Below, one piece after another: positions 6,442 through 62,235 of a DNA stretch of 64,000 nucleotides. The stretch lies in IMG/VR virus record IMGVR_UViG_3300033120_000711; one strand, written 5' to 3'. The stretch's first letter is position 1. Each line of letters begins with the position of its first letter. The notes beneath the pieces are model-generated. The model did not search any database, was not told the DNA's origin, and saw nothing but the letters and a program-made list of their open reading frames with translations. A program made the translations under genes and the position numbers. Origin of the DNA: an uncultured virus (IMG/VR IMGVR_UViG_3300033120_000711). Taxonomy: Duplodnaviria; Heunggongvirae; Uroviricota; Caudoviricetes.

Positions 6442-6455
6442 GGAGGATTTATTTT

Positions 6456-7097: not shown

Positions 7098-7271
7098 ATG
7101 ATCCTCTTTTTGCTGCTGATGCTGCTAATGAGTGGAGGGATGGCGGAGCCTGCCACTGTCGCGGATGTGCATGTATCCACTTGCATCTGCCCGCCAGAAA
7201 TAGAAAATAATTCAACTGCTTGTAAAATGTGGTGCGAATCGGGGAATTGTACGTGGCTAACGTCAAAATAG
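7098..7271 (+). CDS. Small secreted Cys-rich peptide (57 aa)
   Basis: Translates MILFLLLMLLMSGGMAEPATVADVHVSTCICPPEIENNSTACKMWCESGNCTWLTSK: signal-peptide-like N-terminus plus 5 Cys; below the ORF-track cutoff. Confidence 0.4.
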   Translation: MILFLLLMLLMSGGMAEPATVADVHVSTCICPPEIENNSTACKMWCESGNCTWLTSK

Positions 7272-7789: not shown

Positions 7790-7795
7790 GGTATC

Positions 7796-8713: not shown

Positions 8714-9288
8714 CTTCTGTAACAATTCCAGTAGCTCCAGTTGTTGTATCGTCAATTGATAGTTATATATCTGCATACTGGATGGGTCTTAGAGACTCTT
8801 TAGATGCTATAAATCCATCTTTGTATACTGATTTGGTTTCTAATGCCGCAGCCACTATTGAACTTTTTGATTATTCATTTTTAACTGCTGCACAAATTAA
8901 TCAAGCACAAGCTCTTTTGGTTTGTATAGATGCTGCGGAGTTTTCTAGTGTAGCTGGAAATTCTCAAGATAAATATTATGCCACCTTAAAAATTTATGAT
9001 CGTACAATGAAAAAAGATGTTGGTCTTGATTCTTTTACTGGGTCTTTTTGTAGACTTCTGAAAATAACATTAAAAGAATTTAATAGTAAGGTAGCAACCG
9101 CTAGAAGTTCAATTTATACCAAAACTAGGAGCAATAGTGTGTATATTGCTCCTGATATGGATCAAAGAGGAAGAGTATTTAAAGATTATGATCTTGAAGA
9201 TGTAGTTTCAGATCGTAAATCTTTTCCTCTAGATAATAGATATAATAGAAATTTTACTAGGTCAAATATTGTTCAACAAGGATTTTAA
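8710..9288 (+). CDS. Putative head-tail adaptor
   Basis: Helical ~190 aa ORF downstream of the capsid genes; call based on position only. Confidence 0.35.
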   Translation: MTSVTIPVAPVVVSSIDSYISAYWMGLRDSLDAINPSLYTDLVSNAAATIELFDYSFLTAAQINQAQALLVCIDAAEFSSVAGNSQDKYYATLKIYDRTMKKDVGLDSFTGSFCRLLKITLKEFNSKVATARSSIYTKTRSNSVYIAPDMDQRGRVFKDYDLEDVVSDRKSFPLDNRYNRNFTRSNIVQQGF

Positions 9289-9309
9289 TTTAATTCATTT
9301 TTTTAAATT
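9289..9309 (+). promoter_or_regulatory. Conserved late-gene motif, copy 2
   Basis: TTTAATTCATTTTTTTAAATT; ATG 9343 lies 34 nt from motif end. Confidence 0.7.
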
Positions 9310-9342
9310 TTATATTTAATATTAATGCAACGAACTACTCAT

Positions 9343-10164
9343 ATGATTTCTCCATTTGAACAGACGTTATTTAAAAGACCTTCTACTAAGCGGGCGGTAA
9401 GTAGAGGTCCCACTAAAACTGCCATTTGCATTGGAATAAATAAATATCCCTCTGGATATGCATCTTTAACGAAATGTGTAGATGATGCAAAAGCGTGGCA
9501 ATCTTTATTAACGTCTCAGGGGTTTACATGTATAATGCTTTTGGATAAGTCAGCAACGAAAGCAAATATTTTATCCACGATTTCTTCTATTATATCGAGG
9601 AATCGGGAATCCGGTTCATTAATTGTTATTACTGATTCTTCTCATGGATCTCAAGTGAGAGATATGTCTGGCGACGAAAGAGATGGTTGGGATGAGGTTA
9701 TATGTCCTTGTGATTGGCCTAATTATGTAAGCGACGATGATTTACGGGGAATTTTTCAAAATTTGGCTCCTGGAGTTATGCTTACTGTTTTTCTAGATTG
9801 TTGTCATTCGGGAACCGGAACAAGATCTATGGAGAAATTGCCAGAAGGAGTTCTTTCTATTCGTTCTTTACCTCCGCTATTTGAAGATAGAGTCAATAAA
9901 AAAGTAAATACAAAGATTAAAGGTTTTGTTGAAACTCCTACATTAAATCACGTCCTTTTTGCAGGATGCAAAGATTCAGAGGTTTCTTATGAATTAAATG
10001 TTGGTGGAGCGTTTACTTATTTTGCCATTAAAGCTGTAAAACTTGGATATAATAGACAACAAATGATTGATTATATACAGAAGAAAATTTCTGGATTAGG
10101 CTTATCTCAAACACCTCAACTTGAGTGTACTAGAGAAGAAAGTTTACATCTTCCGTTCTTGTGA
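9343..10164 (+). CDS. Caspase-family (peptidase C14, metacaspase-like) protease
   Basis: AICIGINKY...L..CVDDA, SSHGSQ (catalytic His), DE.DG.DE.I.P.D, DCCHSG (catalytic Cys), GAFT, Q.PQL. Confidence 0.9.
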   Translation: MISPFEQTLFKRPSTKRAVSRGPTKTAICIGINKYPSGYASLTKCVDDAKAWQSLLTSQGFTCIMLLDKSATKANILSTISSIISRNRESGSLIVITDSSHGSQVRDMSGDERDGWDEVICPCDWPNYVSDDDLRGIFQNLAPGVMLTVFLDCCHSGTGTRSMEKLPEGVLSIRSLPPLFEDRVNKKVNTKIKGFVETPTLNHVLFAGCKDSEVSYELNVGGAFTYFAIKAVKLGYNRQQMIDYIQKKISGLGLSQTPQLECTREESLHLPFL

Positions 10165-10173
10165 GGTTGTTTT

Positions 10174-10560
10174 ATGGATGATGAATTTATTTATGCTGAG
10201 TTGAGAAATATTTCGTCTAAATTAAGTAGTACGGAATCTCTTGTAACTGAGTTAAAGGAGGATATGGGAAGAATATGTGAATGGAAAGACAACGTTCTTC
10301 CAACTCTTCAGACCTGTAAAGATTATATGGAAAAGAGGGCGGATCTTCCTGATAAAATATCAAATCAAGAAAAAGAGATTGAAAAAATAAGAGAGGAACT
10401 AAAAGTAGAAAAAGAAACCAATGCCGAGTCTAGAAAAAAAACTGAGTTTTTAATGGTTTGGTTTTGGAAAATATCTGGAGCCGTTTTATTACTTGGAATT
10501 ATAAATATACTTTTAGTAGCGTTAGGAAGATTTATTGATATTGAATATGTTTTAAAATAG
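10174..10560 (+). CDS. Coiled-coil protein with C-terminal TM helix (holin-like)
   Basis: Heptad-rich body plus hydrophobic WFWKISGAVLLLGIINILLVAL. Confidence 0.5.
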   Translation: MDDEFIYAELRNISSKLSSTESLVTELKEDMGRICEWKDNVLPTLQTCKDYMEKRADLPDKISNQEKEIEKIREELKVEKETNAESRKKTEFLMVWFWKISGAVLLLGIINILLVALGRFIDIEYVLK

Positions 10561-10565
10561 GTGAG

Positions 10566-10931
10566 ATGATGGATATTTACTCAATAATTATTTTTGGATT
10601 GTCTTCAATTGCGTTAATTCTTGTCATTTGGGCTTTTTTGACAGGTAGAAAACTTTATAATGTTCATTTCGTTAGAATACTTATTATATTTTGTTTATTT
10701 TCTCCTGTTTTTGCTCAAGAAGAAGAGGAAGACATTACTGTTATAGGAGATAAACCTATTATTTCTTCAGATGGAATTATTGAGGGAACAGAAATATTAA
10801 ATAATGAAGCTAGGATAGTAGTTGATTATCTTTTTGAAGATGATATGTGGAGACAGTCTGCATATATGTTTTTATATGGATCGAATAACACCACTGTTAA
10901 ATTACATGGTCCAAAAGAAATAATTATTTAA
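10566..10931 (+). CDS. Membrane protein (two hydrophobic segments)
   Basis: Two TM-like stretches; the second ends VFA-Q like a signal peptide. Confidence 0.55.
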   Translation: MMDIYSIIIFGLSSIALILVIWAFLTGRKLYNVHFVRILIIFCLFSPVFAQEEEEDITVIGDKPIISSDGIIEGTEILNNEARIVVDYLFEDDMWRQSAYMFLYGSNNTTVKLHGPKEIII

Positions 10932-10947
10932 TTCATAATTTTAAAAT
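10927..10947 (+). promoter_or_regulatory. Conserved late-gene motif, copy 3
   Basis: TTTAATTCATAATTTTAAAAT; ATG 10981 lies 34 nt from motif end. Confidence 0.75.
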
Positions 10948-12398: not shown

Positions 12399-12419
12399 TT
12401 TAATTCATATTTTTAAAAT
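12399..12419 (+). promoter_or_regulatory. Conserved late-gene motif, copy 4
   Basis: TTTAATTCATATTTTTAAAAT. Confidence 0.7.
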
Positions 12420-13371: not shown

Positions 13372-13392
13372 TTTAATTCATTTTTTTAAAAT
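13372..13392 (+). promoter_or_regulatory. Conserved late-gene motif, copy 5
   Basis: TTTAATTCATTTTTTTAAAAT upstream of the tape measure gene. Confidence 0.75.
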
Positions 13393-28410: not shown

Positions 28411-28431
28411 TTTAATTCATTTTTTTAAAAT
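28411..28431 (+). promoter_or_regulatory. Conserved late-gene motif, copy 7
   Basis: TTTAATTCATTTTTTTAAAAT. Confidence 0.75.
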
Positions 28432-29758: not shown

Positions 29759-29995
29759 ATGAGTATTTGTGATGCAAATACTAGGTTCCGACTTACTCTT
29801 GCTATGTTGGGATCGGTTTTATTTATGGTTGTAGTTGTTATGTTTTTAAGTGCTTTTGGAAAACCTGTCCCGGATTTTGTTAGTGGTGTGGTTCTCGCGG
29901 GATTCATGATTATGTTAAAGGATGCATATGCGAGTTATTTTAAGGCTCGGGAAGATCTTCAAGCTGCAAAAATATTACAGGACACTTCAAGGTGA
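29759..29995 (+). CDS. Two-TM small membrane protein (holin-like)
   Basis: Two hydrophobic helices and a charged C-terminus. Confidence 0.5.
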   Translation: MSICDANTRFRLTLAMLGSVLFMVVVVMFLSAFGKPVPDFVSGVVLAGFMIMLKDAYASYFKAREDLQAAKILQDTSR

Positions 29996-30003
29996 TTATT
30001 TAA

Positions 30004-31836
30004 ATGACTACGTTTGAAAATCCAACTTCTATTGAGTCTCGTGTCGGGATAGCTGTCGAGACCACCGAAGGAACCGCTATGACGGAGCCTTCAATTGAAT
30101 TATTTATGAATGCTGGGTCTGCACCGGATTTAAATTTGGTTGTAGATAATAAAATAAAAATGAAGGCTTTCAATGAGCCGTATAAGAGAAATGAAATTAG
30201 AGGTTATTGGCATACTGAAGGTAATTTACCGGGTCTTAAATTTTCTCCTACAAATGGTATCCCTGAGTTTTTAGGAGTCGGATTTGGAAATCCTTGGTAT
30301 AATAAGCAGGTTTATACTCTCACGTTAGAAGCAGCAGGCGGGCTTCTTTTTAAAAGAGGGGATAAAATATTTGGAAAAACTTCTCTTGCAAGGGCAGAGG
30401 TTGCTAGAGTCGTGGGAGATGTTCTTTGGCTTATTGGCGTTCAGGGTACTTTTGATTCTGGTGGAAATGAAGATCTTTTAACTTGTCCCGGAGGAACCGA
30501 CTGGAATACGGATACTTTAGTTACAACTCCCGGATTTGCTGCCGTTTCTGGTTATTATTGTCATAAAATGGATGCGGTAAGGAATACTTCTAACGCAGGA
30601 GTAGTTGGGGTTCACACCACTGCAACTCAGGCGTGCCTTATGGATCAAATGCAGGATTTTTCTGAGTTTGGCGTATCTACTGGAAAGAAAAAGGTTTTTG
30701 TAACTGTAAAAGATGCCACTTCTGGAACTCCCATTCCGATATCTGGTTGGATGGGCGCTCCTATAATGGGTATTAAATTTAAAACCGGAACCGCTACGTT
30801 TACGGTTGGAGCAAAATTATCCGCTAAAACAGGTGGCGGGTCTGCTGTAGTTATAGGAGATATTATTGGATTCCGTGTCGATACTGGAACTTGGGCATCT
30901 GATGCCGCAGGAATCGTATTTGTTACGATGGATACAACTGCTCGCGCAGTTGTTGATGCCGATGTTCTTACTGATGATCATGCTGTAACCCCCGGTGCGG
31001 CTGTTGCAGATCAGGCGGCTATTCCGGCATATCTTAGTAATGCGGTAAAAATTTATAATAACGCCGATACATCTGGTTCAGCTCAGTCTTGGAATGGAGA
31101 TGTTACGACCTTTGACGAGACCGATACTTTAACTTATACTGCAATTCAGAGGACGTTCGATCAGAAGTCTCTTTCAGTGTTTGTTAAGGACGCAGGAGAT
31201 AATACTAAGGTTGGATACGGAACTAAGGTTAAAGAAATTAGCTTTGATATAACTGCCGATTCGTTTGCTTATACCGTTGGTCTACTTGGAAGAAATCTTC
31301 AATATCCGACAACCGAGCCTGCGTATCCGGGTGGCTTAACCGATTCTTCTCCGTTTGGTGCATCTTCCAGAACCTTTGAAATTGATGGGTCCTCTTCTGG
31401 TCAGGCGGCTCAGGTAAATAAAGCTAGAGCAAGCTTCACTTGGGACTTTGCTCCTGGAAAGGGAGTTGTAATTTCTGAGAATTATCCAACTACCTTACAG
31501 CCGACAACATATAATATTGTTGGAACTCTTGATGTTCAGTGGAAAAATAATGCTTTAATGAAGGCATTTTGGAATAATCCTTCTGGAAATGTTCCCGCTG
31601 CTGGTACTTTAATTTCAAAAAGACTATCTTTTATCTTAGACAGTGGAGATGTAGTTGCTACAGGATATAACAAGATTCTCTCCATTGAGCTTCTTGGTAC
31701 TATTGATTCTGCAACTCTTAACAGAGATCAAGACGGCTACATACAGCCTACTACAATTGAGGGTTACATGAACGATAGTACTTATGTTTGGGGTCCCGCA
31801 AGATTCTATGTGTTTGATGCAACTGCCACACACTAG
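30004..31836 (+). CDS. Major tail (tube) protein with inserted domains
   Basis: N-terminal GIAVETTEGTA motif of tube proteins; C-terminal tube-like beta strands; followed by a hairpin and T-run, then chaperone genes. Confidence 0.7.
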   Translation: MTTFENPTSIESRVGIAVETTEGTAMTEPSIELFMNAGSAPDLNLVVDNKIKMKAFNEPYKRNEIRGYWHTEGNLPGLKFSPTNGIPEFLGVGFGNPWYNKQVYTLTLEAAGGLLFKRGDKIFGKTSLARAEVARVVGDVLWLIGVQGTFDSGGNEDLLTCPGGTDWNTDTLVTTPGFAAVSGYYCHKMDAVRNTSNAGVVGVHTTATQACLMDQMQDFSEFGVSTGKKKVFVTVKDATSGTPIPISGWMGAPIMGIKFKTGTATFTVGAKLSAKTGGGSAVVIGDIIGFRVDTGTWASDAAGIVFVTMDTTARAVVDADVLTDDHAVTPGAAVADQAAIPAYLSNAVKIYNNADTSGSAQSWNGDVTTFDETDTLTYTAIQRTFDQKSLSVFVKDAGDNTKVGYGTKVKEISFDITADSFAYTVGLLGRNLQYPTTEPAYPGGLTDSSPFGASSRTFEIDGSSSGQAAQVNKARASFTWDFAPGKGVVISENYPTTLQPTTYNIVGTLDVQWKNNALMKAFWNNPSGNVPAAGTLISKRLSFILDSGDVVATGYNKILSIELLGTIDSATLNRDQDGYIQPTTIEGYMNDSTYVWGPARFYVFDATATH

Positions 31837-35540: not shown

Positions 35541-35561
35541 TTTAATTCATAATTTTAAAAT
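35541..35561 (+). promoter_or_regulatory. Conserved late-gene motif, copy 8
   Basis: TTTAATTCATAATTTTAAAAT; ATG 35595 lies 34 nt from motif end. Confidence 0.75.
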
Positions 35562-36005: not shown

Positions 36006-36026
36006 TTTAATTCATAATTTTAAAAT
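36006..36026 (+). promoter_or_regulatory. Conserved late-gene motif, copy 9
   Basis: TTTAATTCATAATTTTAAAAT; portal ATG lies 35 nt from motif end. Confidence 0.75.
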
Positions 36027-38277: not shown

Positions 38278-38592
38278 TTACCTCAAAATCTTCCTTATCT
38301 TTTCTATTCTTTTTCTGAACTTCTCTCTAGCTTCTTTTGAACGCTTATGCGAATTTTCTATTTCAGTTAAATCTTTTTCCAACATTTTAGTTATTCTTTC
38401 GTTGTTTAATCTTTGTCTTTCTTTCTCAAGGTCTTCTATTTGATTTTCTATTTCTGTTGGAATTTCGTTCCAGGAAATTAATACTCTATCTAATGTTTGG
38501 GATCTCCAAATAAGAGGATGAATGTCGATAATTTCATCTCGGATTGAAGGGGCAAGAAATCCACCTACGTATGATATATGATATTTAGTCAT
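38278..38592 (-). CDS. Hypothetical protein
   Basis: Translationally coupled ORF with a coiled-coil C-terminus. Confidence 0.55.
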   Translation of the reverse strand: MTKYHISYVGGFLAPSIRDEIIDIHPLIWRSQTLDRVLISWNEIPTEIENQIEDLEKERQRLNNERITKMLEKDLTEIENSHKRSKEAREKFRKRIEKIRKILR

Positions 38593-39020
38593 TTTAATTC
38601 CTCTATAATATTATCAATATCATTCGTTATTAGATCTGCAAATCCATACATAGTTTCAAATTCACCATTAACAAAACTATTAGGATAATAAATTATGGTT
38701 TTCTTCCCCTTTCCCGCTGCATATCCAAGTTCTAAATGTGACGATCTACCGCAAGGCATTATCATTATTACGACATCTGCCAAATCAATTTTTTTCTTAT
38801 CTTGTTGAAAGGCTTTTTGAGTTCTCCAATCTTTAAGAAACGTTTTTGCGTTTAAATTTAATAGGATTTCTTGTGGTAGTTCTGTCCAACTGAATACGAA
38901 TCTTCCATTAGATGGGTCAGTAAAATTATCTACTTCGTGGCCGATATTAGATAACTCTTCTGCTACCATATTTATAATATTCCTATTCTTCCAAGAAGAA
39001 GCTAAATAAATTTTGGTCAT
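38589..39020 (-). CDS. Nucleoside 2-deoxyribosyltransferase-like protein
   Basis: KIYLASSW...D...I..AD......P.G.S.H.E.GYA.G.GK. Confidence 0.75.
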   Translation of the reverse strand: MTKIYLASSWKNRNIINMVAEELSNIGHEVDNFTDPSNGRFVFSWTELPQEILLNLNAKTFLKDWRTQKAFQQDKKKIDLADVVIMIMPCGRSSHLELGYAAGKGKKTIIYYPNSFVNGEFETMYGFADLITNDIDNIIEELK

Positions 39021-40560: not shown

Positions 40561-41085
40561 TCAATCCCCTGGAAAATTAAGACAACAAAATTTGCCAAAG
40601 AATTCTTTAGCGGCTTTGTCATACGCGCGGGCCGCGTCTTCTTCGGAGTCGAAACGACCTAAAAATATTCGTCGTTTATTGATTTGAATTCGAACCTTCC
40701 ATTTGGAACTAGATTTTTCCCAATCAACCCCTTTATATCGACTTGTTTTTGCCACATTATTGGTTCTGCGATTATATTGGTTTTCACCAAAACTAACAAG
40801 ACGCAAATTATGCCTCCTATTATCTAAACAATCGTGGTTGATATGGTCTACGCATTTATATTCTTCAATAGGATGACCTAATATTCTCTCCATGATGACA
40901 CTATGTAAATTAAGGGTTTTTTGTGCTTTCCTCCCTTTTCGCTCCGATGGTAACTGTCTAGAAACGTACCACAAGTCTTGGTTGTATCCACTTTTTCTGA
41001 CATACCAATTTTTAATAGTTAAGTCTACATCTTCGTCGTCCACCAAGGCTATTTTCCCTTGAGTTAATTTTATTTCACAAACCAT
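40561..41085 (-). CDS. HNH-AP2 homing endonuclease
   Basis: VDHINH..LDNRR.NLR plus SRYKGV.W....W...I......LG.F..EEDAARAYD.AA. Confidence 0.92.
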   Translation of the reverse strand: MVCEIKLTQGKIALVDDEDVDLTIKNWYVRKSGYNQDLWYVSRQLPSERKGRKAQKTLNLHSVIMERILGHPIEEYKCVDHINHDCLDNRRHNLRLVSFGENQYNRRTNNVAKTSRYKGVDWEKSSSKWKVRIQINKRRIFLGRFDSEEDAARAYDKAAKEFFGKFCCLNFPGD

Positions 41086-41088
41086 CTT

Positions 41089-44000
41089 TTACTCCCCATT
41101 CCAGAATGTCCCTTTCGCGGTCACATTCCATTTTCCGCGAATTACTGATCCATACATGGGTAAAATCCCTCCGCGGTCCATAATGGCACCATATGTTATT
41201 TGCCCCACGTTATTTACACACTCAATCGAGGCGAATCCGTTCCCCGCTTTAGAGGTCCCATAACTTACATTTGTAACCAAGAATTCTCTAAGTCCTAAGG
41301 TCTCTATGTCGCCTTCCAATCCTCTCAGTACGTTTTTAGACATTTCATCTTCTACATTACCCATCCACAGTATTTGTAGTTTTCCCTCTCTAACTTCTAT
41401 ATGGCCCCTGTTCATATAAAATGGGTGGAGACAAAACACCAATGGATTCTTTTGTTCTCCTTTAATTATCGCGTCCACAATTTCCTTATGCCTCCTCGCG
41501 ACTACTGCGGACAAGTTTAAGGTAACTCTCGATGTTCCATCTTCATGATTGAGAACATACGAAGTGTTGCCATTGGTACTAAACGCTTTATGATCATAGA
41601 CCCACCCCACAGAGAGAAATGCTTTATTTTCTACGGACTCAGATTTGAGATAATTTAAAGGTTTTCTATACTGATCCCACGGAGTTTTAGGCAACTCTTC
41701 GTATGATCTAGGCCAAGGGAGGGATTTTCTGAGCCTGAACATCTTTTCTTCCTCTGACCAATCGTCGCTTGTATTCGGTTCTGAGGACCATGCCCATAAA
41801 GTGTTCTTAGTGAGTTCCTTGCCACTTAATAATTGCTTGCGATTAGACTCTACTGAATCTAAATAACCCACCTCTACGAGCGTTTGGTAGACATTCTTTT
41901 TAATTTTCTTTATCTTGTTAAAGTCGTTTCCTGCGGCAATAACTTTTTTTATCTCTTCAGGACCAATTCCTTTTACTTTGTTTAATCCTAAATAAATTAT
42001 ATTTTTATCTTTGTTAAATGTAGTTAATTCTGAAGGAGATTCTATACTTGGAGGTTTAATTTCTACTCCTGAATCTAAAGCTTCTTTTACGAAGGCTAAA
42101 GACTGGGTTTCGTCGGATTCTACATTAATTAAAGATGTATAGAAGGCTAGTGGGTGATACAGTTTTAACCATGCTGTCCAATAACCGAGGATGGAATATT
42201 CAATAGAATGACTTAAGTTGAAGGAATAGCGTCCAAACTCAAGAATCTTAGTAAATAAATTATCAAATTGTTGTTTTGTAAAATCATTTACCAAAGCACC
42301 CAAACAAAATTGCTCTTCTTTTTCTTTTAAGGCATCTCTTCCTTTACTCTTAGCGATTAATTTCATAAATTTTTCAGATTCAACCATTGAAAAATTACCA
42401 ATCTGATTTGCAACTTCCATTATTTGCTCTTGATAGCAAATAATACCATATGTATTCTTAGTAATTGATTCTAATTTGGGATGGTCGTAAGTCCAGTCCT
42501 TTCCTCCTTTTCTGTCCACATAATCAAAAGACATTCCAGAGTTAAGAGGACCTGGACGACATAATGCATTGGTTGCTACTAGATCGCTGAATTTATCAGG
42601 ATTTAAATGTCTTAAATAATCGGTTACTAATTGAGACCCAAACTGAAAAATTCCGGCAGTTTTACTTGACTTAAGAAGTTCAAATATCTTTGGATCTGCG
42701 TAATCCTCTGGTAAATTATTCCAATCTAATCCAGAAGATTTAAGTGCTCCATCTATTATATCTAATACGGAAATTCCTAAAACGTCGAATTTAATTATAC
42801 CTAAACTCTCTAACATGTCTTTTTCATAAGAAGTTGCTAGACAATTTTTAATATCTCCTTTATCGTATGTTTCAGTTGGAATGGTGTTTTCTAAGTCCTT
42901 ACAAATTACCACTCCTGCTGCATGAAGTCCTACATGTCTAATTTTTCCTTTCAATTTAACGGCAGCATCTATTACGTCTGGATACTTTTTTGCGAACTCT
43001 GCGGCGGTTTCTGATGTAAGAATTATATCCTCTATTTTGAGATTTTCTGCTGTTTTAGTGGAGAGTTCTTTGTTAAATTTATTTACTTCAGAAAGAGGTA
43101 CATCGTAGATTCTGGCTACATCTTTAATTGCAGACTTATCAGACCACTCGCTGAATGTCATAATATAGGATACGTTTGTTGGTCCATATTCAAGTCTAAG
43201 GCTTCCAATTATACTTTCTCTTTTCTTGGCACTAAAATCCATGTCAATATCAGGAGTCCTCGTTGGGCTTAAGAACCTCTCCCATAAAGTATTAAATCTA
43301 AGGGGATCTACTTTTGTGATTCCCAATAGATATGCAAGTAAAGATCCTCCTACTGAACCTCTTCCCGGACCTCTTGGGATGTTATGAGAATCTGCATAAT
43401 CAACCATATACATTACTTTATCAAAGTAGTTGAAGAATTTTCTGGAAGTAAGTAGATCTACCTCTTTTGTTATTCTTTCGTTTACTGTTTGAGGGTCATA
43501 TCCATTTTTTTCAATATAACCCTTAATATCAATTCTATCTAATATCTTTTGTCTGGCTTCCTCTTCATTTCCGGGCAAAGTATCATATAGATTTGACGGT
43601 AATTCAAAAGTACACTTGTCTGCTACTTCTAAAGTATTCGCGAATAGCTCTTCCATAATGGGATAAATTTTAGGGTGATTGGATTTTAAAAGAGATTCTA
43701 TTTGGTTGCAAGTCAGATTACAAAACGTATCATCTGAAAATCCAATCTTATCCGTAATCTTTTTTCTCCATTCGTTTGCTTTTACCAGATCGTGATAATG
43801 TTTATCTTCTGGAGAATTGTAATGAGAATCGGTAGTGATTATAGGTTTAATATTATATTTTCTAGCAATATTAATTATATATTCATTGAATCTAACTTGC
43901 TCGTCTAATCTGTTCGGCATTATTTCAATGTAGAGATTTTCTCCGAATGCTGCTTGGAGTTTTTGAATTATTGGTTCAGGATTATCTCCTCTCTTCCACC

Positions 44001-45054
44001 TTTGGGCTATTGTGCCACTAACGCAAGCTGTACTGCAAATTAATCCTTCGGAATGTTTACAAACTTCGTCTAGTGGAATTTTTTGAAACACCTTATTAAA
44101 TACTTTATGAGTATGCTCTTTTGCAATTGTATGAAGTTTTAGAAGATTTTTATAGCCTGTTTCGTTTTTAACAAGTAGAACAAGGTGACTCTGTTTTCTT
44201 TCAGACTCTTCTATGTAAGCTTCTAGTCCGATAATAGGTTTAATTCCTTTTTTCTTTAAGGCGTTTTGAAAATAGGGAAGACCAGAAAGAGACCCGTGAT
44301 CTGTTATAGCACACGCTTTAAAACCTTTTTTAGATAGGTCTTCTGCCATTTCATCTTGAGTCCTGAAAACATCTCCAACACTTCCATGTTCAGAATGAGT
44401 ATGCAGCAGGACATACCTTTGTTCTTCTGATGGACCACTTGGTAACGTATTATCTGGTTTTAAAAGGTTGGGTTGTAGGTTCCCGATAGTGGCTTCCCTG
44501 CCTTTACCCACTTGTCCATCCCCAAGAAAAAAGTTTACACGCTCGAAGGATTTTATATAGTCCTCAATTTTTACGGCTCCGCGCAAGCAGTAGCTTGGAT
44601 GGTATAATCCAATAAACCTTCTACCGTTATTGTCTTTTAGGGTATGGCCTATGCTTTCTGAAATCTTCCTATCGGGGAAGAAAAAATTCAAGGCCGTAGC
44701 TCCGAGGCACACAACAAGTTCCGGATTTAATAGATCTAATTGTTGCTCCAACCAGGGCTTACAAGCCGCAACCTCTTCTGATGTTGGTTTTCTGTTTTCG
44801 GGTGGCCTGCATTTTAGAATATTAAGGATGCAAAAATCTTTGATACCATTTTCCGCTATGCAGCGATCTAGTAGCAACCCCGATCTCCCAACGAAGGGCT
44901 TCCCCGCTACGTCTTCTTCGGCTCCAGGGGCTTCTCCTATTATGACTATTTTTGGAGTCTGTGAACCTCTACCGACAACGACATTTTTTCGAGTTTCGCA
45001 GAGTCCACATTTTTTACAGGTTTTAATTTCTTGAGATAGTGTTTTGAGATCCAA
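41089..45054 (-). CDS. dnaE: Family-4 uracil-DNA glycosylase fused to DNA polymerase III alpha (family C)
   Basis: N-terminal C..C.LC, GEAPG, PFVG.SG, KCRPP.NR, HPS; then PHP domain (HTHS, DH, DSH), GPGRGS.GGSL, RF, PDIDMD, HAAG, KFDVLG, YQEQ.M, Y.FN.SH. Confidence 0.93.
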   Translation of the reverse strand: MDLKTLSQEIKTCKKCGLCETRKNVVVGRGSQTPKIVIIGEAPGAEEDVAGKPFVGRSGLLLDRCIAENGIKDFCILNILKCRPPENRKPTSEEVAACKPWLEQQLDLLNPELVVCLGATALNFFFPDRKISESIGHTLKDNNGRRFIGLYHPSYCLRGAVKIEDYIKSFERVNFFLGDGQVGKGREATIGNLQPNLLKPDNTLPSGPSEEQRYVLLHTHSEHGSVGDVFRTQDEMAEDLSKKGFKACAITDHGSLSGLPYFQNALKKKGIKPIIGLEAYIEESERKQSHLVLLVKNETGYKNLLKLHTIAKEHTHKVFNKVFQKIPLDEVCKHSEGLICSTACVSGTIAQRWKRGDNPEPIIQKLQAAFGENLYIEIMPNRLDEQVRFNEYIINIARKYNIKPIITTDSHYNSPEDKHYHDLVKANEWRKKITDKIGFSDDTFCNLTCNQIESLLKSNHPKIYPIMEELFANTLEVADKCTFELPSNLYDTLPGNEEEARQKILDRIDIKGYIEKNGYDPQTVNERITKEVDLLTSRKFFNYFDKVMYMVDYADSHNIPRGPGRGSVGGSLLAYLLGITKVDPLRFNTLWERFLSPTRTPDIDMDFSAKKRESIIGSLRLEYGPTNVSYIMTFSEWSDKSAIKDVARIYDVPLSEVNKFNKELSTKTAENLKIEDIILTSETAAEFAKKYPDVIDAAVKLKGKIRHVGLHAAGVVICKDLENTIPTETYDKGDIKNCLATSYEKDMLESLGIIKFDVLGISVLDIIDGALKSSGLDWNNLPEDYADPKIFELLKSSKTAGIFQFGSQLVTDYLRHLNPDKFSDLVATNALCRPGPLNSGMSFDYVDRKGGKDWTYDHPKLESITKNTYGIICYQEQIMEVANQIGNFSMVESEKFMKLIAKSKGRDALKEKEEQFCLGALVNDFTKQQFDNLFTKILEFGRYSFNLSHSIEYSILGYWTAWLKLYHPLAFYTSLINVESDETQSLAFVKEALDSGVEIKPPSIESPSELTTFNKDKNIIYLGLNKVKGIGPEEIKKVIAAGNDFNKIKKIKKNVYQTLVEVGYLDSVESNRKQLLSGKELTKNTLWAWSSEPNTSDDWSEEEKMFRLRKSLPWPRSYEELPKTPWDQYRKPLNYLKSESVENKAFLSVGWVYDHKAFSTNGNTSYVLNHEDGTSRVTLNLSAVVARRHKEIVDAIIKGEQKNPLVFCLHPFYMNRGHIEVREGKLQILWMGNVEDEMSKNVLRGLEGDIETLGLREFLVTNVSYGTSKAGNGFASIECVNNVGQITYGAIMDRGGILPMYGSVIRGKWNVTAKGTFWNGE

Positions 45055-52932: not shown

Positions 52933-54018
52933 TCACCTCTTAAATTTTAAATCAAAATATTCTTTTGCGATTTCAGGATATTTAATTTCAAAATTCCTCA
53001 TTGTTCTATATGCAATATGTTTCTCGCCATGCGCCTTACAAAACTCTCTAAAAGACATTCTTTTGAAAAGTGCGGGCTGATTACACCATCTTGAGACATG
53101 AGTATATAATTTTTCAAATTTGCTTCCTTTAAAAGAATTATAGCGCATTATATAGGGTTCACATTTATAGTTAATTAATAATTTTATTCTAAGGAGCATG
53201 TTTTCTATATCTTTTAAATCTTGTGATTCATGGGCAACTAAAACATATAGTTTTGTATTTTTATTTGTAATTTGTTTCCACATTTGTAATTTAGATTCAA
53301 TTAAACTATAGTCTTTAATGTTATCAAAAGCAAATATAAAATCACCATCATACTTACATGAAGCTAATATTTGTGCGGTTTTCTCATTTAGTAGTCTTAG
53401 ATCTAATCCTTGTTTAAATTGAAACTTTTTCTTTGTTGAAATTAAACTTTGTAGAATATCTGTATAATTATGGTATCCAAGGAAATTATCATCTAATAGA
53501 CATATTAACTTTCTTTTTTGATCTATAAATTCGTTAATCGGAGAATGAAGCTCTACCTTATTATAATTTTTATTTACACAAAAATCACAATGTCTAAAAC
53601 ATCCTCGCGTAGTAAATCCTATTGAATAGTCAGTGTAATACTTTATTTTTTTTAAAGAAATTCCTGACTTAATTTGTTGTTCTATCCAATTATTATATAA
53701 TGAATAATCGGGAAAGGAATGCTCTATTTTTTGTTCAAGCGGCACGGCATTTTCTAAGAAGAATCCAGTTCCGCCATATTCTAAATTGTGAATTTTATTT
53801 AAATCTATAGGTATTTTAGCGTCGGTAAATGCGCTGGATAGAAAAATCTTATCATATTTTTCTAGATTATTATAATTTAAGAGTAAACCTGTATTATAAC
53901 CTCTTGTTTTATAATATGAACTAATTTTCATTAAAGCTAGATTAGGAAACCTATGATTTTTTCGGCCTAGAAGGTCAGCATCTATAAGTCCAATTCTCTT
54001 CGAAATAAAATCACCCAT
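52933..54018 (-). CDS. Radical SAM protein (phage type with N-terminal B12-binding-like domain)
   Basis: FPNLALMKIS, GGTG, TRGCFRHCDFC (CX3CX2C), LLDDN, QGLD.R. Confidence 0.8.
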   Translation of the reverse strand: MGDFISKRIGLIDADLLGRKNHRFPNLALMKISSYYKTRGYNTGLLLNYNNLEKYDKIFLSSAFTDAKIPIDLNKIHNLEYGGTGFFLENAVPLEQKIEHSFPDYSLYNNWIEQQIKSGISLKKIKYYTDYSIGFTTRGCFRHCDFCVNKNYNKVELHSPINEFIDQKRKLICLLDDNFLGYHNYTDILQSLISTKKKFQFKQGLDLRLLNEKTAQILASCKYDGDFIFAFDNIKDYSLIESKLQMWKQITNKNTKLYVLVAHESQDLKDIENMLLRIKLLINYKCEPYIMRYNSFKGSKFEKLYTHVSRWCNQPALFKRMSFREFCKAHGEKHIAYRTMRNFEIKYPEIAKEYFDLKFKR

Positions 54019-57683: not shown

Positions 57684-57758
57684 TCCGCATTACAGGAATC
57701 GAACCTGCCTAAATATTCGGTCTACAGCCGAACGCTTGTGCCAATCAGCCAAATGCGG
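57684..57758 (-). tRNA. tRNA-Tyr(GTA), archaeal type
   Basis: CCGCATT/AATGCGG-A acceptor (C1:G72), anticodon arm TTCGG-CTGTAGA-CCGAA, short variable loop, no encoded CCA. Confidence 0.9.
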
Positions 57759-58054: not shown

Positions 58055-58128
58055 TGGACGGTGGTGGGGCTCGAACCCACAGCTTCTACCATGCCAAGGT
58101 AGCGGTCTTCCAATTGGCCTACACGCCC
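58055..58128 (-). tRNA. tRNA-Ala(GGC)
   Basis: CTACC-TTGGCAT-GGTAG anticodon arm, G3:U70 pair, T-arm GTGGG-TTCGAGC-CCCAC; one bulged C in the acceptor stem. Confidence 0.85.
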
Positions 58129-58602: not shown

Positions 58603-58883
58603 AAAAGTTCCTCAATAACTTTATCTATAAAATCATTTGTACAATGGTCGTCATATTTAAAACATTTTACCCATCGTCCGTCTATAGATTCCCATTTTTC
58701 TTTAATAGCTCCAACGTCAATCCCATGACAAATTCCGTGCCAAACATCTTCTTTACTTAATTCGGTTAATGTTACTAAACCAGAAAAATAAGGTAATGGA
58801 TAATGTCTACAGGCAACTAATACTTTTAGGTTCCGAGGAAGTAAGTCCCATTTTTCCTGGTTAAAGTTTCCCTTCATTTCCAT
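58596..58883 (-). CDS. Hypothetical protein, possibly winged helix
   Basis: Translationally coupled ORF. Confidence 0.45.
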   Translation of the reverse strand: MEMKGNFNQEKWDLLPRNLKVLVACRHYPLPYFSGLVTLTELSKEDVWHGICHGIDVGAIKEKWESIDGRWVKCFKYDDHCTNDFIDKVIEELLC

Positions 58884-59884
58884 TCCTCCTCGTCGTGACT
58901 ACTTAATCCTACAATACTCCAATCTGTGACTCCATAGGACATTACATTCCCTCCAGAACAGCCTCTATATCTACGAGGTCCAGTCATTGCCTCATCTACG
59001 ATTTTATTGAATTTTGATACGACATCTTCTTTTTTAGGAGAAACCTTTTCTACAGGAGCAATACTTGGCGTCATTTCTTCTGTTATAGGATATCTAATAC
59101 AATTTCTGCAAGATTTGTGCCAAACATTTGGTCCGAATCTAATTTCTTTAAACTCGTTCTCCCAAATATCCTTTAAAGATCTCTCAAAGAGATTTCCCTG
59201 GACTGAAACAGAACCAGAAGTTCTTTCGCTTAGACACGGAACAACGTCTCCATCTGCTGTAATTCCACAGGAAACCATTCCCGCAGAACAGGTGTGTTGA
59301 TCTTGCAAATTATCAGCAAGTATGTATTTCATTCCTTTCAAGTCTCTAATTTTCTTTTTGAGATAAGAAATACCAGTAGGGTTTAATAAGAGATCTGACC
59401 CAGTATTCAACTGAATTTGCCAGGACTTAAATGATTGAGCAATTTCAGCTAATTTATCAAATTCCCAAATGTTGTGAGTTCCAAAATTTGTAACCATTAC
59501 TACATCTCTATATGGTACTTTAGAAATATATGTTGGCTTAAGAAAATCATCGGGGTAATTCACAGATAATCCAATTATATTTAATCTACTAATCGCCTTA
59601 GATTTTCCGAGTAATTTTCCATTTGTTATGGCTCGAACGTCGCAATGATATAAAATTTTTAAATCATTAATTATAGATGCCAAATCGTTATCGTCAATTT
59701 CTCCTGGTTCTCCTCCGGACAAAGTAACTACTTCAACTCCATAAGACCCAATTTCTTTTGCGATATGAAGCATACGATCTATAGGTGGATTTGTACTTCT
59801 AAGTTCATTTTTAGATCCGCAGTAGTTACAATGTTTTCCACATTTAAGTGTGATTTCCCAAATAATGTCTTTTAGTTTAAGCAT
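58874..59884 (-). CDS. Radical SAM/SPASM-twitch enzyme
   Basis: WEITLKCGKHCNYCGS, SGGEP, ITNG, CSAG...GITADG.V.PC, GNL.ERSL.DIW, C..C. Confidence 0.9.
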   Translation of the reverse strand: MLKLKDIIWEITLKCGKHCNYCGSKNELRSTNPPIDRMLHIAKEIGSYGVEVVTLSGGEPGEIDDNDLASIINDLKILYHCDVRAITNGKLLGKSKAISRLNIIGLSVNYPDDFLKPTYISKVPYRDVVMVTNFGTHNIWEFDKLAEIAQSFKSWQIQLNTGSDLLLNPTGISYLKKKIRDLKGMKYILADNLQDQHTCSAGMVSCGITADGDVVPCLSERTSGSVSVQGNLFERSLKDIWENEFKEIRFGPNVWHKSCRNCIRYPITEEMTPSIAPVEKVSPKKEDVVSKFNKIVDEAMTGPRRYRGCSGGNVMSYGVTDWSIVGLSSHDEEEWK

Positions 59885-60974: not shown

Positions 60975-61985
60975 CTACACCTCGTACACTGGACAGGATC
61001 TGCAATTATTTAACAAGAGCTTTCTAAATGATTTAAATTCTGTGCTATACCAAACATTCTGAAGAAAATCTTCTGTCAAATTCAGGTTTCCAACAAAAGA
61101 GACTCCTTCGCAGAATGAACAAGGCCAAGCTTTTCCATTAACATCTATATAGATGCTAAATAAAGTAGACTCACACGGTTCTACATTCTGTTTTAGTCCT
61201 TTTAGCGCACCATACTTTGGGTTTCTATCTAAAAAATCTAAGAACTTTTTAGATGAGCACGAATCAAACCCAAATCTTATCCAGTTGTCTAGGCAATAGC
61301 TTGTGATAGTATCAAATTTTTCTTGATCTATCTTATTATAGTTTTCCCCGCGTCCCTTCTTCTTTAAAGAAAGAAATACTATTGCATTCAGATCCTTCAA
61401 TCTTGGGTCTGTCTCAATATCGTGTATGGTTTCCATACAATTTTCATAAGTTTCTTCTGCCACCAGTTGGTGAATATTGACCTGTTTTAGACCTGCTTCA
61501 GTCAGCTTTTGGACAGCATCATAACACACATTCTTGTTATCATATCGAGATACTGCTACAGCTCCGCAAACCTCAGCTAACTTAAAAGCCCATTCAGGAG
61601 TTAATCCCCATCCATTTATTGTAACATTAGGAACTACACCATTATCTCTGCAATACCAGAAAATATCTAGCATATTTGGATTAGAATTTAAATCCCCAAT
61701 TCCAAATGCAATTTGTAATATGGTATTTGGAAGATTACTAAAGACTTTTTTAAAAGTCTTAAGGTTCATATTCTTTCCGATGCTTGTATTGGATTTATAG
61801 CAGTGTGAGCAAGCCTTCCCTTCTATCCCATGACAAATTGTAGAGATTTCTATATCTGCAAGCTCTGGTCCTATTGGAGAATATTGTGGGTCATCATTAA
61901 ACGTTTTTCCCCATCTTCTAAACTTTCCAGTAACATCATCAAAATCATAGTTATAAAATGGGGTGCGAACTTCCTTAAAATCCAT
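60975..61985 (-). CDS. Radical SAM enzyme with CX7CX2C motif and twitch/SPASM domain
   Basis: PELADIEISTICHGIEGKACSHCY, T.NG, K..GRG, CES...YIDV.G...PCSFC, C..CP. Confidence 0.88.
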   Translation of the reverse strand: MDFKEVRTPFYNYDFDDVTGKFRRWGKTFNDDPQYSPIGPELADIEISTICHGIEGKACSHCYKSNTSIGKNMNLKTFKKVFSNLPNTILQIAFGIGDLNSNPNMLDIFWYCRDNGVVPNVTINGWGLTPEWAFKLAEVCGAVAVSRYDNKNVCYDAVQKLTEAGLKQVNIHQLVAEETYENCMETIHDIETDPRLKDLNAIVFLSLKKKGRGENYNKIDQEKFDTITSYCLDNWIRFGFDSCSSKKFLDFLDRNPKYGALKGLKQNVEPCESTLFSIYIDVNGKAWPCSFCEGVSFVGNLNLTEDFLQNVWYSTEFKSFRKLLLNNCRSCPVYEV

Positions 61986-62235
61986 CTTTTTCACCCATTA
62001 CGGTAAATTCATTTGTTAAATCGATCAAATCTTGGTCGTTTAATTCTTCAGCACGGACCTTAATTTTATCGAGCACGCTCTTTAATTGAAACACCATCTC
62101 TTTATCGAGTTTATATTGCTTACAATTTTTACTACACTCTTCAGATTCTAAAAATAGTAGATCCTCCTTTCCTCTAAATTTTACAATAAAGCTAGAAGAA
62201 CTACTATTGGAAACAAAGCCATTTCTAATCTTCAT
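61975..62235 (-). CDS. GFVSNSSS-tag protein 5
   Basis: MKIRNGFVSNSSSSSFIV. Confidence 0.75.
   Translation of the reverse strand: MKIRNGFVSNSSSSSFIVKFRGKEDLLFLESEECSKNCKQYKLDKEMVFQLKSVLDKIKVRAEELNDQDLIDLTNEFTVMGEKDGF

Follow-up and report, generated by a model that had tools for sequence, protein, structure and literature searches.

A family-4 uracil-DNA glycosylase fused to a DnaE-type polymerase in a large tailed virus, most likely of a methanogenic archaeon

We found that the window, the 64,000-nucleotide stretch of viral DNA analysed here, carries a single gene in which a family-4 Fe-S uracil-DNA glycosylase (UDG) is followed, from N to C terminus, by a linker, a PHP domain, the palm, thumb and fingers of a family-C polymerase, a helix-hairpin-helix (HhH) domain, a diverged OB fold and an extra beta-barrel (Table 1). 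Though unusual, the fusion is not new: the record of one cultured virus of methanogens already annotates it, and it occurs widely in metagenomes. In the reading that we favour, and consider rather probable, the enzyme is the replicative polymerase of a large tailed methanogen virus, and its UDG is catalytically live, scanning for uracil and excising it in step with replication.

The open reading frame and the fusion are confirmed. As described in the earlier note, which had been made from the letters of the DNA, the frame is uninterrupted (1321 aa, TTG start); a Shine-Dalgarno-like GGTGAT lies directly 5' of it, and in relatives the start falls at the same place, with MDLK as the opening residues. 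The complete Fe-S UDG-4 domain announced there was borne out as well: the Pfam UDG model matched residues 28-161 (E 8.7e-32), the NCBIfam model UDG_fam4 (TIGR00758) scored 147.6 bits, above its cut-off of 125.3, and family-4 structures were matched in the PDB (1L9G/1VK2, E 1e-41; 1UI0, E 1e-32), while the scores of the UdgX and Arch_udg equivalog models stayed below their cut-offs. The domain also matches the UDG-PolA proteins of phages. It displays GEAPG at 40-44, HPS at 152-154, F54, N78 and the 4Fe-4S site cysteines C13, C16, C82 and C98; GE[AG]PG (motif A), HP[SA] (motif B) and the four cysteines are what we take to be the catalytic and cluster motifs of family-4 UDGs. Residues G40, E41, G44, F54, G59, N78, H152 and P153 are invariant in the clade of DnaEs with an N-terminal UDG (N-UDG clade; 28/28) and in a second N-UDG clade (4/4), and the invariance of catalytic residues in all 28 across a deep divergence suggests selection on catalysis. 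The four cysteines are kept in 24 of the 28 and lost jointly in the other four, as expected of a real Fe-S cluster. The linker proved to be Pro/Gly-rich as claimed, if moderately so, and measures 4-304 aa among relatives.

The claims of an intact-looking PHP domain and of DnaE palm motifs also stood. The Pfam PHP match spans residues 217-379 (E 4.1e-35), and all the metal-site residues are present (H218, H220, D228, H253, E278, H290, C344, D409 and H411), these nine being invariant in 28/28 and 4/4 members of the two N-UDG clades; their mapping onto the published nine depends on alignment with the Taq enzyme, in which Asp228 is off by one column, and is tentative to that extent. Since nine conserved PHP metal positions have been linked to Zn-dependent proofreading (Timinskas et al., PMC3919608, accessible part), the PHP domain, with its complete metal site, probably gives the enzyme its own 3'-5' exonuclease for proofreading. 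In the polymerase core, Pfam DNA_pol3_alpha covers residues 520-760 (E 8.2e-63) and the finger model 772-921 (E 2.9e-43); the Taq Pol III alpha motifs PDIDTDF and KMDFLG are aligned with PDIDMDF (residue 601) and KFDVLG (residue 755) of the window enzyme, and the palm catalytic aspartates D602, D604 and D757 are again invariant (28/28 and 4/4). The PHP, DNA_pol3_alpha, finger and HHH_6 models all passed their Pfam cut-offs. Family C, DnaE type, is indicated by the NCBIfam superfamily model TIGR00594 (680.1 bits, cut-off 434.35), and every NCBIfam DnaE equivalog model missed its cut-off (NF004226, 660.9 bits against 1002).

Beyond the HhH domain, the conserved motif NRKQLLSGKELTKNTLWAW occupies a position corresponding to the internal clamp-binding motif site of bacterial DnaEs. 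The OB domain was not detected by Pfam; in the AlphaFold model (pLDDT 87, pTM 0.83) its best VIA superposition is on the OB fold of Mycobacterium tuberculosis DnaE1 (7pu7_A; Z 10.4, rmsd 2.8 A over 104 residues), and the Foldseek matches of this model are tandem-OB DNA binders. The second beta-barrel, whose tail bears a conserved G-T-F-W-x-G-E, stands in the model where bacterial DnaE has its tau-binding C-terminal domain. The diverged OB fold and this extra barrel were absent from the earlier note's description.

Table 1. Positions of the fused gene, its domains and other features in the window
Feature	Residues	Position	Strand	Basis or remark
Whole UDG4-linker-DnaE fusion gene		41089..45054	-	stop codon 41089-41091
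Family-4 uracil-DNA glycosylase domain	1-175	44530..45054	-	profiles, motifs, conservation
Linker, Gly/Pro-containing	176-212 (approx.)	44419..44529	-	poorly conserved
PHP domain	213-487	43594..44418	-	Pfam, Taq alignment, conservation
Pol III alpha core (palm, thumb, fingers)	519-995	42070..43500	-	Pfam, Taq alignment
Tandem helix-hairpin-helix domain	996-1075	41830..42069	-	Pfam HHH_6, E 3.4e-9
Conserved linear motif NRKQLLSGKELTKNTLWAW	1071-1089	41788..41844	-	flexible stretch
Diverged DnaE-type OB fold (predicted)	~1113-1232	41359..41718	-	structure superposition
Second small beta-barrel (predicted)	~1239-1321	41092..41340	-	AlphaFold model, Foldseek
HNH-AP2 homing-type endonuclease gene		40561..41085	-	adjoins the polymerase gene on its downstream side
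tRNA-Tyr(GUA), virus-encoded, 75 nt; host-domain marker		57684..57758	-	C1-G72, A73, 5-nt variable loop

The enzyme falls in a deep clade tied to viruses and mobile elements, outside the clade of cellular-type DnaEs (support 100). An N-terminal UDG was found in 32 of 133 DnaE rows, and in at least 42 of the best 150 representatives at 50% identity, while another 38 of the 150 carry the UDG at the C terminus instead; the C-terminal-UDG DnaEs form a separate clade of 18 rows (support 100) near that of the window. The branch of Methanobacterium virus PhiF1 is very long, and the grouping of all N-UDG DnaEs, PhiF1 among them, in one clade was not rejected (AU p = 0.595). As the trees are unrooted, they show neither a donor nor a direction for the cross-domain acquisition of DnaE that the earlier note had inferred. 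Among the 40 matches listed from annotated phages, only PhiF1 has a contiguous UDG and DnaE, so that such fusions do not appear to be common in the nearest bacteriophage relatives. The statement of the earlier note that characterised archaeal tailed viruses use PolB/PolD is not supported, since the PhiF1 record annotates a DnaE with an N-terminal UDG4.

Replication genes were sought in G001, a complete relative of 145 kb with direct terminal repeats that is collinear with the window and whose polymerase is 87% identical. This genome encodes a PrimPol-type primase, an SNF2 helicase, an ATP-dependent ligase, NrdD/NrdG, two DnaQ-like exonucleases and dNTP-metabolism genes, a profile that matches a self-replicating virus. 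Of the genes that the earlier note had suggested looking for, primase and helicase were found in this relative but clamp or PCNA was not: profiles for PolB, PolA, PCNA_N and the beta clamp gave no match in G001 at E<=1, a clamp loader was not detected there, and PF00476 (A-family polymerase) had no match in G001 or in a further relative, G002. The lack of a detected clamp and clamp loader in G001 would also suit a dedicated repair or translesion polymerase (DnaE2/ImuC-like or resembling the plasmid DnaE-UDG enzymes), with host PolB/PolD replicating the genome. The "error-prone DNA polymerase" subfamily NF004225 does match (412 bits, below the cut-off of 939), UDG, polymerase and ligase make up a parts list for base-excision repair, and the bacterial C-terminal-UDG DnaEs are additional polymerases, according to the accessible part of PMC3919608. 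We nevertheless hold this explanation to be improbable, because the enzyme is the sole polymerase of a 145-kb genome equipped as described, because its PHP metal site is complete while that of most DnaE2 and all DnaE3 is missing (PMC3919608, same part), and because its best NCBIfam matches are the replicative DnaE models.

Several genes point to a relative of Methanothrix, a methanogenic archaeon, as the most likely host. The tRNA-Tyr of the window, with C1-G72, A73, a class I structure and a short variable arm, is of the archaeal/eukaryal identity type under the domain rule for tRNA-Tyr (PMC5370408 and PMC1934993, each in its accessible part). In G001, rather than in the window itself, all 19 organism-named relatives of NrdD are Methanotrichaceae (methanogens) and all nine of TnpB are methanogens, at identities of only 57-63%. 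An archaeal-type PTH2 is a further signal, its nearest clusters being 83-100% Archaea. The archaeal host proposed in the earlier note is therefore supported, and these data do not show the host to be bacterial. If the virus instead infected a bacterium, perhaps an uncultured one, its DnaE would be unremarkable and the archaeal signals would be due to gene transfer. Several observations point that way: the NCBI label on a protein of the G001 contig ('MAG: Proteobacteria bacterium'), a bin label that counts for little on a viral contig of 145 kb; genes for Tad6 (anti-Thoeris), HNH-AP2 and Dam in the virus genome, all typical of bacteriophages; TerL, matched weakly and only by Bacteroides and Vibrio phages (16 records, 25-27% identity); a virus GC of 35-38%, in mismatch with the >50% of Methanothrix genomes; and Shine-Dalgarno motifs upstream of 39/67 genes, a usage that is common among methanogens too. 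In addition, the archaeal tRNA-Tyr identity is used by some CPR bacteria (PMC5370408, accessible part). With four independent archaeal signals (tRNA-Tyr, NrdD, TnpB and the PTH2 clusters) against it, and with the closest annotated virus, which is also the only one with the same fusion among the 40 matches listed, infecting Methanothermobacter, we regard the bacteriophage explanation as unlikely, the least probable of those considered.

Surveillance of the template for uracil is built into archaeal PolB/PolD and is absent from family-C enzymes. Under the favoured reading of a replicative enzyme with a live UDG, the latter would supply it in cis: one polypeptide would combine an intact-site UDG, the PHP domain, a family-C core with HhH and OB domains and the extra C-terminal barrel, the tethered UDG would inspect the template at the fork and remove uracil, and the viral ligase and nucleases could finish the repair. 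The architecture, the conserved catalytic residues, the lack of any other polymerase or clamp gene in the complete relative and the host signals were observed, while the activity of the UDG, its read-ahead role, proofreading by PHP and the means of processivity are inferred. Uracil scanning and excision is the most likely role of the UDG by parallel with the UDG-PolA enzymes of phages SPO1 (gp31), SP-15, YerA41 and phiLo, in which an active UDG searches the template for dU in front of the fork (Missoury et al. 2026, PMC13697223, accessible part). The earlier note had put forward the UDG as a possible substitute for the beta clamp, that is, mainly a DNA-binding processivity element in the style of poxvirus D4/A20 and not a repair enzyme. 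In poxviruses, D4 does confer processivity in partnership with A20 (Kazlauskas et al. 2016, PMC4889955, accessible part), no PCNA or beta-clamp gene was detected in the complete relative, a regex search of the polymerase recognised no beta-clamp-binding motif of the QL[SD]LF type, and the tau-binding domain appears, in the model, to be replaced. However, the invariance of the UDG catalytic residues and the retention of the Fe-S ligands in most clade members argue against a purely structural function, a linker of such variable length is ill-suited to a fixed clamp-like geometry, and in UDG-PolA it is the UDG that excises dU, other inserts being proposed as processivity elements (PMC13697223, same part). 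A clamp-substitute role is thus not favoured and we regard it as unlikely, if less so than the repair and bacteriophage explanations. The two roles of the UDG are not mutually exclusive.

Docking lends weak support to the recruitment of PCNA: the median ipSAE was 0.32 (runs 0.47, 0.00 and 0.32) against 0.00 for the best control, with runs agreeing in at least 0% of contacts and a partner pLDDT of at least 85, and a partner pLDDT as stated. Of 157 solved complexes, 116 reached the docking mark, as did 2 of 215 mismatched pairs, but at 0.60 or under it was reached by only 18 of the 157 and by both passing mismatches. Tentatively, a whole deep clade of tailed viruses of methanogens and other archaea might replicate by a family-C enzyme rebuilt for the archaeal cell, with UDG read-ahead and PHP proofreading in cis, and with the tau and clamp interfaces replaced by the beta-barrel and the NRKxLLxGKELTxNTLWAW motif, which would recruit host PCNA or give clamp independence.

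Family-C polymerases are the textbook bacterial replicases. Among viruses they were found confined to bacteriophages in a global survey (Kazlauskas et al. 2016, PMC4889955, accessible part), a view that an archaeal-virus family-C clade would, if true, overturn. A diverse UDG-DnaE clade on large viral genomes, at least some of which belong to methanogen viruses, blurs the split between bacterial and archaeo-eukaryotic replication in the virosphere, and would offer a natural experiment in which a C-family polymerase works without beta clamp, tau and epsilon inside an archaeal cell. The fusion is also a third independent weld of a UDG to a viral replicase, after PolA with an N-terminal and DnaE with a C-terminal UDG, and this repetition argues that viruses repeatedly need to have uracil removed in step with replication. 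Much methane comes from methanogens of the Methanothrix type, whose viruses have hardly been characterised. The PhiF1 precedent and the many metagenomic relatives reduce the value of this particular window.

The system most like the one described here is that of PhiF1 (GenBank MK994522, ORF58/ORF57; host Methanothermobacter), on whose polymerase our literature search found no paper. Like the window virus, most likely, it is a tailed virus of a methanogen, and its N-terminal UDG4 precedes PHP and DnaE in the same way; its genome also holds NrdD, a PD-(D/E)XK nuclease and a thymidylate-synthase-like gene. The two polymerases are about 34% identical over a match spanning query residues 3-1042, but the PhiF1 fusion is divided between two ORFs that overlap in different reading frames, whereas that of the window is a single ORF, and the virion genes are unrelated. 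The UDG-PolA enzymes resemble the window enzyme in having a UDG4-like domain at the N terminus of a viral replicase, and differ from it in polymerase family (A, not C) and in their bacterial hosts; their phages co-encode a ligase, according to the accessible part of PMC13697223, in which DnaE does not occur, and have hypermodified thymidine. A family-C polymerase joined to a UDG is also found in the DnaEX variant carried by Yersinia pestis and by Salmonella enterica, where a C-terminal archaeal-type UDG (PF03167) replaces the OB/CTD (Timinskas et al. 2014, PMC3919608, accessible part); there the UDG sits at the other terminus of a bacterial protein, while the window enzyme retains its OB fold. 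A bacterial DnaE1 whose PHP exonuclease is active (Taq/Tth, M. tuberculosis; PDB 2HPI, 5LEW, 7PU7) shares the PHP-palm-thumb-fingers-HhH-OB order, the three catalytic Asp and the residues of the PHP metal site, but it is cellular, has no UDG and bears a tau-binding CTD and beta-clamp motifs. The poxvirus polymerase belongs to family B, and D4 to another UDG family. In the D4-A20-E9 complex, as in the window enzyme, UDG and viral replicase are physically joined, but the link is non-covalent, through A20, and a processivity role is established there, whereas in the window enzyme it is UDG catalysis that is apparently under selection.

The polymerase is encoded by a single unbroken ORF of 1321 codons on the minus strand of the window, with a TTG start and, immediately 5' of it, a Shine-Dalgarno-like GGTGAT; its relatives have the same start position and MDLK as first residues. 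Pfam placed a UDG domain at residues 28-161 (E 8.7e-32), followed by PHP (217-379), DNA_pol3_alpha (520-760, E 8.2e-63), the finger domain (772-921) and HHH_6 (996-1075). With the NCBIfam models, the protein exceeded the curated thresholds of TIGR00594 (680 bits, cut-off 434) and of the family-4 UDG subfamily TIGR00758 (147.6 bits, cut-off 125.3), and scored below those of every DnaE equivalog and of the UdgX and Arch_udg models. The palm motifs pointed out in an earlier note made from the sequence alone were found as PDIDMDF at residue 601 and KFDVLG at residue 755; the motifs aligned to them in Taq Pol III alpha are PDIDTDF and KMDFLG. The ORF, both sets of profiles and these motifs confirm what that note had described, a UDG-DnaE fusion in one uninterrupted frame, and we regard this observation as solid. 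Residues 1083-1321, beyond the domains that the note had described, had no Pfam match, and a confident AlphaFold model of residues 1070-1321, built from a 16-row alignment, presented two beta-barrels (pLDDT 87.1, pTM 0.83). In a structural search against all representatives, the first match of this model was the OB domain of M. tuberculosis DnaE1 (7pu7_A residues 993-1099), which superposed on protein residues 1113-1232 with Z 10.4 and an rmsd of 2.8 A over 104 residues; Foldseek returned the tandem-OB DNA binders HIN-200, RPA70, LEF-3 and Teb1 with a probability of at least 0.9 and a TM of only about 0.2. Because of the OB superposition, the protein is, as modelled, a complete DnaE including the OB domain, and the second barrel is predicted to take the position of the tau-binding domain of bacterial DnaE. 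The DnaEs of the close relatives P0003 (1774 aa), P0010 (1778 aa), P0024, P0029 and P0032 carry inserted intein and LAGLIDADG domains (PF14890, PF14528); that of the window is intein-free, and a gene for an HNH-AP2 homing-type endonuclease lies directly downstream.

Catalytic sites were compared in an alignment of 28 members of the window clade (down to about 33% identity) plus four of a second clade with N-terminal UDG. The UDG residues G40, E41, G44, F54, G59, N78, H152 and P153, the PHP residues H218, H220, D228, H253, E278, H290, C344, D409 and H411, and the palm aspartates D602, D604 and D757 were invariant in 28/28 and 4/4. The Fe-S cysteines C13, C16, C82 and C98 were present in 24 of the 28 members, the other four (P0026, P0028, P0029 and P0119) being without all of them; these four make up one subclade that retains the UDG catalytic motifs, an example of a family-4-like UDG that naturally does without the cluster. 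In the accessible part of Timinskas et al. (PMC3919608), nine PHP metal-binding positions are described as conserved in PolC and most DnaE1, where they are linked to Zn-dependent proofreading, and as lost in DnaE3 and most DnaE2. The nine PHP residues of the window may map one to one onto those positions: when compared with Taq, eight of the nine align with identical residues, and Asp228 is one column off.

Among 50,697 annotated phage records, the best match of the polymerase was Methanobacterium virus PhiF1, whose record annotates ORF58 as a 'DnaE superfamily protein with N-terminal family 4 UDG domain' and has the remainder, ORF57, in another frame. The UDG-PHP part and the DnaE remainder of PhiF1 are overlapping ORFs, an arrangement that could reflect either a genuine split or a frameshift, whether programmed or accidental. 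Since this record already shows the layout, the window joins a kind that is known, though essentially unstudied. Among the best 40 of 1502 phage records matching the polymerase, the UDG part was covered in PhiF1 only. A blastp search of a 5.8-billion-protein collection disclosed UDG in 50 of 133 assembled DnaE rows, N-terminal in 32 (window included) and C-terminal in 18. When a library of 1.84 billion representatives was queried with residues 1-420, the 150 best matches comprised 42 proteins with UDG followed by PHP (linkers of 4-304 aa), 38 with PHP and a C-terminal UDG, 60 short stand-alone UDGs, seven with PHP only and three in which the UDG was on other long proteins. The C-terminal arrangement is noted for Yersinia and Salmonella in the accessible part of Timinskas et al. 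(PMC3919608), and this variant was not found again among plasmids: none of the 25 DnaE matches listed of 2305 records had the UDG part, and the 20 UDG matches listed of 562 were all stand-alone UdgX or UDG. In the two contigs examined of 11 human-gut contigs with UDG ('Bacteriophage sp.' records), the UDG was alone and had no DnaE downstream.

In an unrooted FastTree of 133 rows and 1147 columns, the window clade consisted of 29 rows (support 99), 27 of them with N-terminal UDG; of the other two, one was a fragment and one a call that may be truncated. All the UDG-linked DnaEs plus three viral DnaEs were on one side of a branch with support of 98, and 75 cellular-type or unfused rows on the other. 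An unrooted IQ-TREE of 47 rows supported a core clade with N-terminal UDG (99), one with C-terminal UDG (100) and a cellular-type clade (100), with a backbone that was not resolved and a PhiF1 branch of 1.8 substitutions per site. Constraining all 17 rows with N-terminal UDG, PhiF1 included, to one clade was not rejected (p-AU 0.595), the constrained tree being 6.5 log-likelihood units better. The trees show a lineage of DnaEs from viruses and mobile elements that is old and has diversified; neither tree gave a sign of recent capture from a particular bacterium and, being unrooted, they give no direction of transfer.

The window is part of a tailed-virus genome, with a tape-measure protein, a tail-repeat protein and TerL, and also encodes Tad6, HNH endonucleases, PTH2, NADAR, an RNA ligase, three radical-SAM/SPASM genes and three tRNAs; in the protein collection, its polymerase is carried by a 71,839-bp contig. 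A relative, the IMG/VR genome G001 (145,414 bp, with direct terminal repeats and rated 100% complete), is collinear with the window, which wraps around its termini, and has a polymerase of 87% identity. As the window spans the point that matches the terminal repeat, its contig is either circularly permuted or assembled through the repeat. Outside the coverage of the window, G001 encodes an 802-aa PrimPol/Zn-ribbon primase, an SNF2 helicase, an ATP-dependent DNA ligase and two DnaQ-like exonucleases, so that the primase and helicase which the earlier note had suggested looking for elsewhere in the genome do exist in this relative, together with NrdD and its activase, dCTP-deaminase-like and thymidylate-synthase-like genes, Dam and C5 methylases, a DHH phosphoesterase and TnpB. 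The PCNA_N, DNA_pol3_beta, DNA_pol_B and DNA_pol_A profiles had no match at E<=1 in G001 or in the 45%-complete related genome G002, and did match in control genomes; therefore, no replicative polymerase besides the fused DnaE is recognisable, and a clamp gene is absent.

Coordinates of features in the window and in related records
Record	Feature	Coordinates	Strand
Window	UDG-DnaE polymerase	41089-45054	-
Window	HNH-AP2 endonuclease	40561-41085	
Window	Tad6	2680-3132	+
Window	Caspase-family peptidase	9325-10164	+
Window	Possible hypermodification gene set	52933-54018, 58874-59884, 60975-61994 (-), 38589-39020 (-), 1473-2009 (+)	
Window	tRNA-Ala(GGC)	58056-58128	-
Window	Point matching G001 terminal repeat	~29991-30311	
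Window	TTAATTCAT(N2)TTTTTAAAAT sites	3143-3162, 10928-10947, 12400-12419, 13373-13392, 28412-28431, 35542-35561, 36007-36026	+
G001	Tad6	L022:12532-12996	
G001	TnpB (IS605 OrfB)	L020:11330-12487	+
G001	Possible hypermodification gene set	L018:16421-17176, L019:16532-17215	
PhiF1 (L001)	UDG-PHP part	6025-7368	
PhiF1 (L001)	DnaE remainder	7289-10819	

Several other genes are listed in the table. TnpB is inserted in the replication region of G001, and a caspase-family peptidase gene (Peptidase_C14, E 2.7e-21) lies within the virion-gene block of the window. Tad6, an inhibitor of type I Thoeris, was matched strongly (PF25188, E 1e-46); in a probable archaeal virus, this would imply that the methanogen host has a Thoeris-like defence or that the family has a different role. 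The three radical-SAM/SPASM genes, a nucleoside 2-deoxyribosyltransferase, a 5'-nucleotidase and the divergent thymidylate-synthase-like and dCTP-deaminase-like genes form a hypermodification-type set that could serve DNA base hypermodification, as in phages with UDG-PolA. The AT-rich motif TTAATTCAT(N2)TTTTTAAAAT was found 5' of virion-module operons, with seven matches, all on the plus strand, against 0.12 expected, and upstream of virion genes in G001 too. It is probably a virus-specific (late) promoter, the TATA-like core of which fits an archaeal TATA box (TATA/BRE type) as well as a T4-type late promoter. The tRNA-Ala(GGC) predicted by ARAGORN may be decaying or unusual: in the fold of that program its acceptor stem is irregular, pairs 3-4 being mismatched, and a shifted register yields G3:U70 at the cost of two mismatches at the stem base.

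Four lines, namely the identity of the tRNA-Tyr and the relatives of NrdD, TnpB and PTH2, make an archaeal host highly probable; for the Methanotrichales in particular the chances are about even. The window tRNA-Tyr(GUA), of 75 nt, has C1-G72, A73 and a variable loop of 5 nt. The TyrRS of archaea and eukaryotes require C1-G72, and the tRNA-Tyr of bacteria differs by its G1-C72 pair and long variable arm, a rule that two papers support (PMC1934993, PMC5370408); some CPR bacteria use the archaeal identity too (PMC5370408). The NrdD and TnpB signals derive from G001 and not from the window, which counts against an archaeal host. Among 120 relatives listed for NrdD, all 19 that bear an organism name are Methanothrix, Methanosaeta, Methanocrinis or Methanotrichaceae (57-60% identity), closer matches (65-85%) being listed without one; the nine named among 120 listed for TnpB are eight Methanotrichaceae and one Methanoregulaceae (60-63%). 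The Atlas clusters nearest to the window PTH2 are 83-100% archaeal, plus one viral cluster. Against an archaeal host count the NCBI label of the G001 contig, 'MAG: Proteobacteria bacterium', which is also the only organism label among the cluster members of 10 proteins, the phage-typical genes Tad6, HNH-AP2 and Dam, and virion genes without informative relatives. The GC content of the virus (35-38%) counts against it too, by contrast with Methanothrix, the genomes of which exceed 50% GC, although an AT-rich virus with a tRNA-Leu(UAA) would fit a GC-rich host. None of these points shows the host to be bacterial, and the archaeal virus of the earlier note stands as probable on the tRNA-Tyr, NrdD, TnpB and PTH2. 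In the accessible part of PMC11576556, 16 head-tailed (pro)viruses of Methanotrichales are cited from an earlier study.

Shine-Dalgarno sequences precede 39 of 67 genes against a background of 15.6%, which is real without discriminating the host domain, and in the Atlas the thymidylate-synthase-like gene had viral clusters only, without host signal. Neither 20 kb of the window (megablast) nor the tRNA-Tyr (blastn) matched phages, and a scan of genome contigs for proviruses found only three cellular Vulcanimicrobiota DnaEs of 29% identity without the UDG part. By tblastn against phages, TerL matched 16 records, Bacteroides and Vibrio phages at 25-27% identity, and a portal-like protein matched two over 8% of the query (Methanocaldococcus fervens tailed virus 1, E 4e-4), all of them too weak to place the virus. 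When five records of deeper clade members were typed, both records with an N-terminal UDG polymerase were without tRNA, and the only one with tRNAs, the related record G008 (Glu, Lys, Asn, Gln), had types uninformative on the host.

Regular expressions found no canonical PIP-box or beta-clamp motif in the polymerase, and one relaxed PIP-like match, at residue 507, is inside the fold. The inner 18 sequences conserve NRKxLLxGKELTxNTLWAW at the position of the internal clamp motif of bacterial DnaE, in a stretch of low pLDDT, and an aromatic FW/FF pair near the C-terminus. Residues 1070-1321 were docked against PCNA of Methanothrix thermoacetophila, in runs of 0.47, 0.00 and 0.32 (median 0.32, best control 0.00), with a contact agreement across runs of at least 0% and a partner pLDDT of at least 85. 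Of 157 solved complexes, 116 reach the docking mark, as do 2 of 215 mismatches, but at 0.60 or below only 18 of the 157 and both passing mismatches reach it. As the docking method itself states, a pass of this kind is wrong more often than not for any guess that was not already likely. PCNA binding by this modelled region may be taken as a weakly supported lead. The earlier note had proposed that the UDG could substitute for the bacterial clamp, an idea that the strict conservation of its catalytic residues and the analogy with UDG-PolA do not favour. We believe that replication-coupled uracil surveillance and excision is the most likely role of the window UDG, on account of that conservation and of the co-encoded ligase and nucleases. 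Archaeal PolB and PolD sense template uracil themselves, which C-family enzymes are not known to do; in an archaeal setting, the fused UDG would replace this missing sensing.

In the accessible part of Kazlauskas et al. 2016 (PMC4889955), C-family polymerases are 'exclusive to' or 'confined to' bacteriophages, and in a literature mostly without subscription journals and supplements we found no paper that discusses the polymerase of PhiF1, or a DnaE of any archaeal virus. UDG4-like domains are frequent on A-family phage polymerases (SPO1, CP-51, and Rhizobium, Serratia and Pseudomonas phages), and one is also on the A-family polymerase of a Methanomicrobiales-assigned virus. The closest studied analogue to the UDG-DnaE of the window is the SP15-like UDG-PolA. 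The accessible part of its description (Missoury et al. 2026, PMC13697223), where DnaE goes unmentioned, reports that the fused UDG is active: it detects dU in front of the fork and leaves abasic sites, which are bypassed with dA, base-excision repair being completed by co-encoded PolX and ligase.
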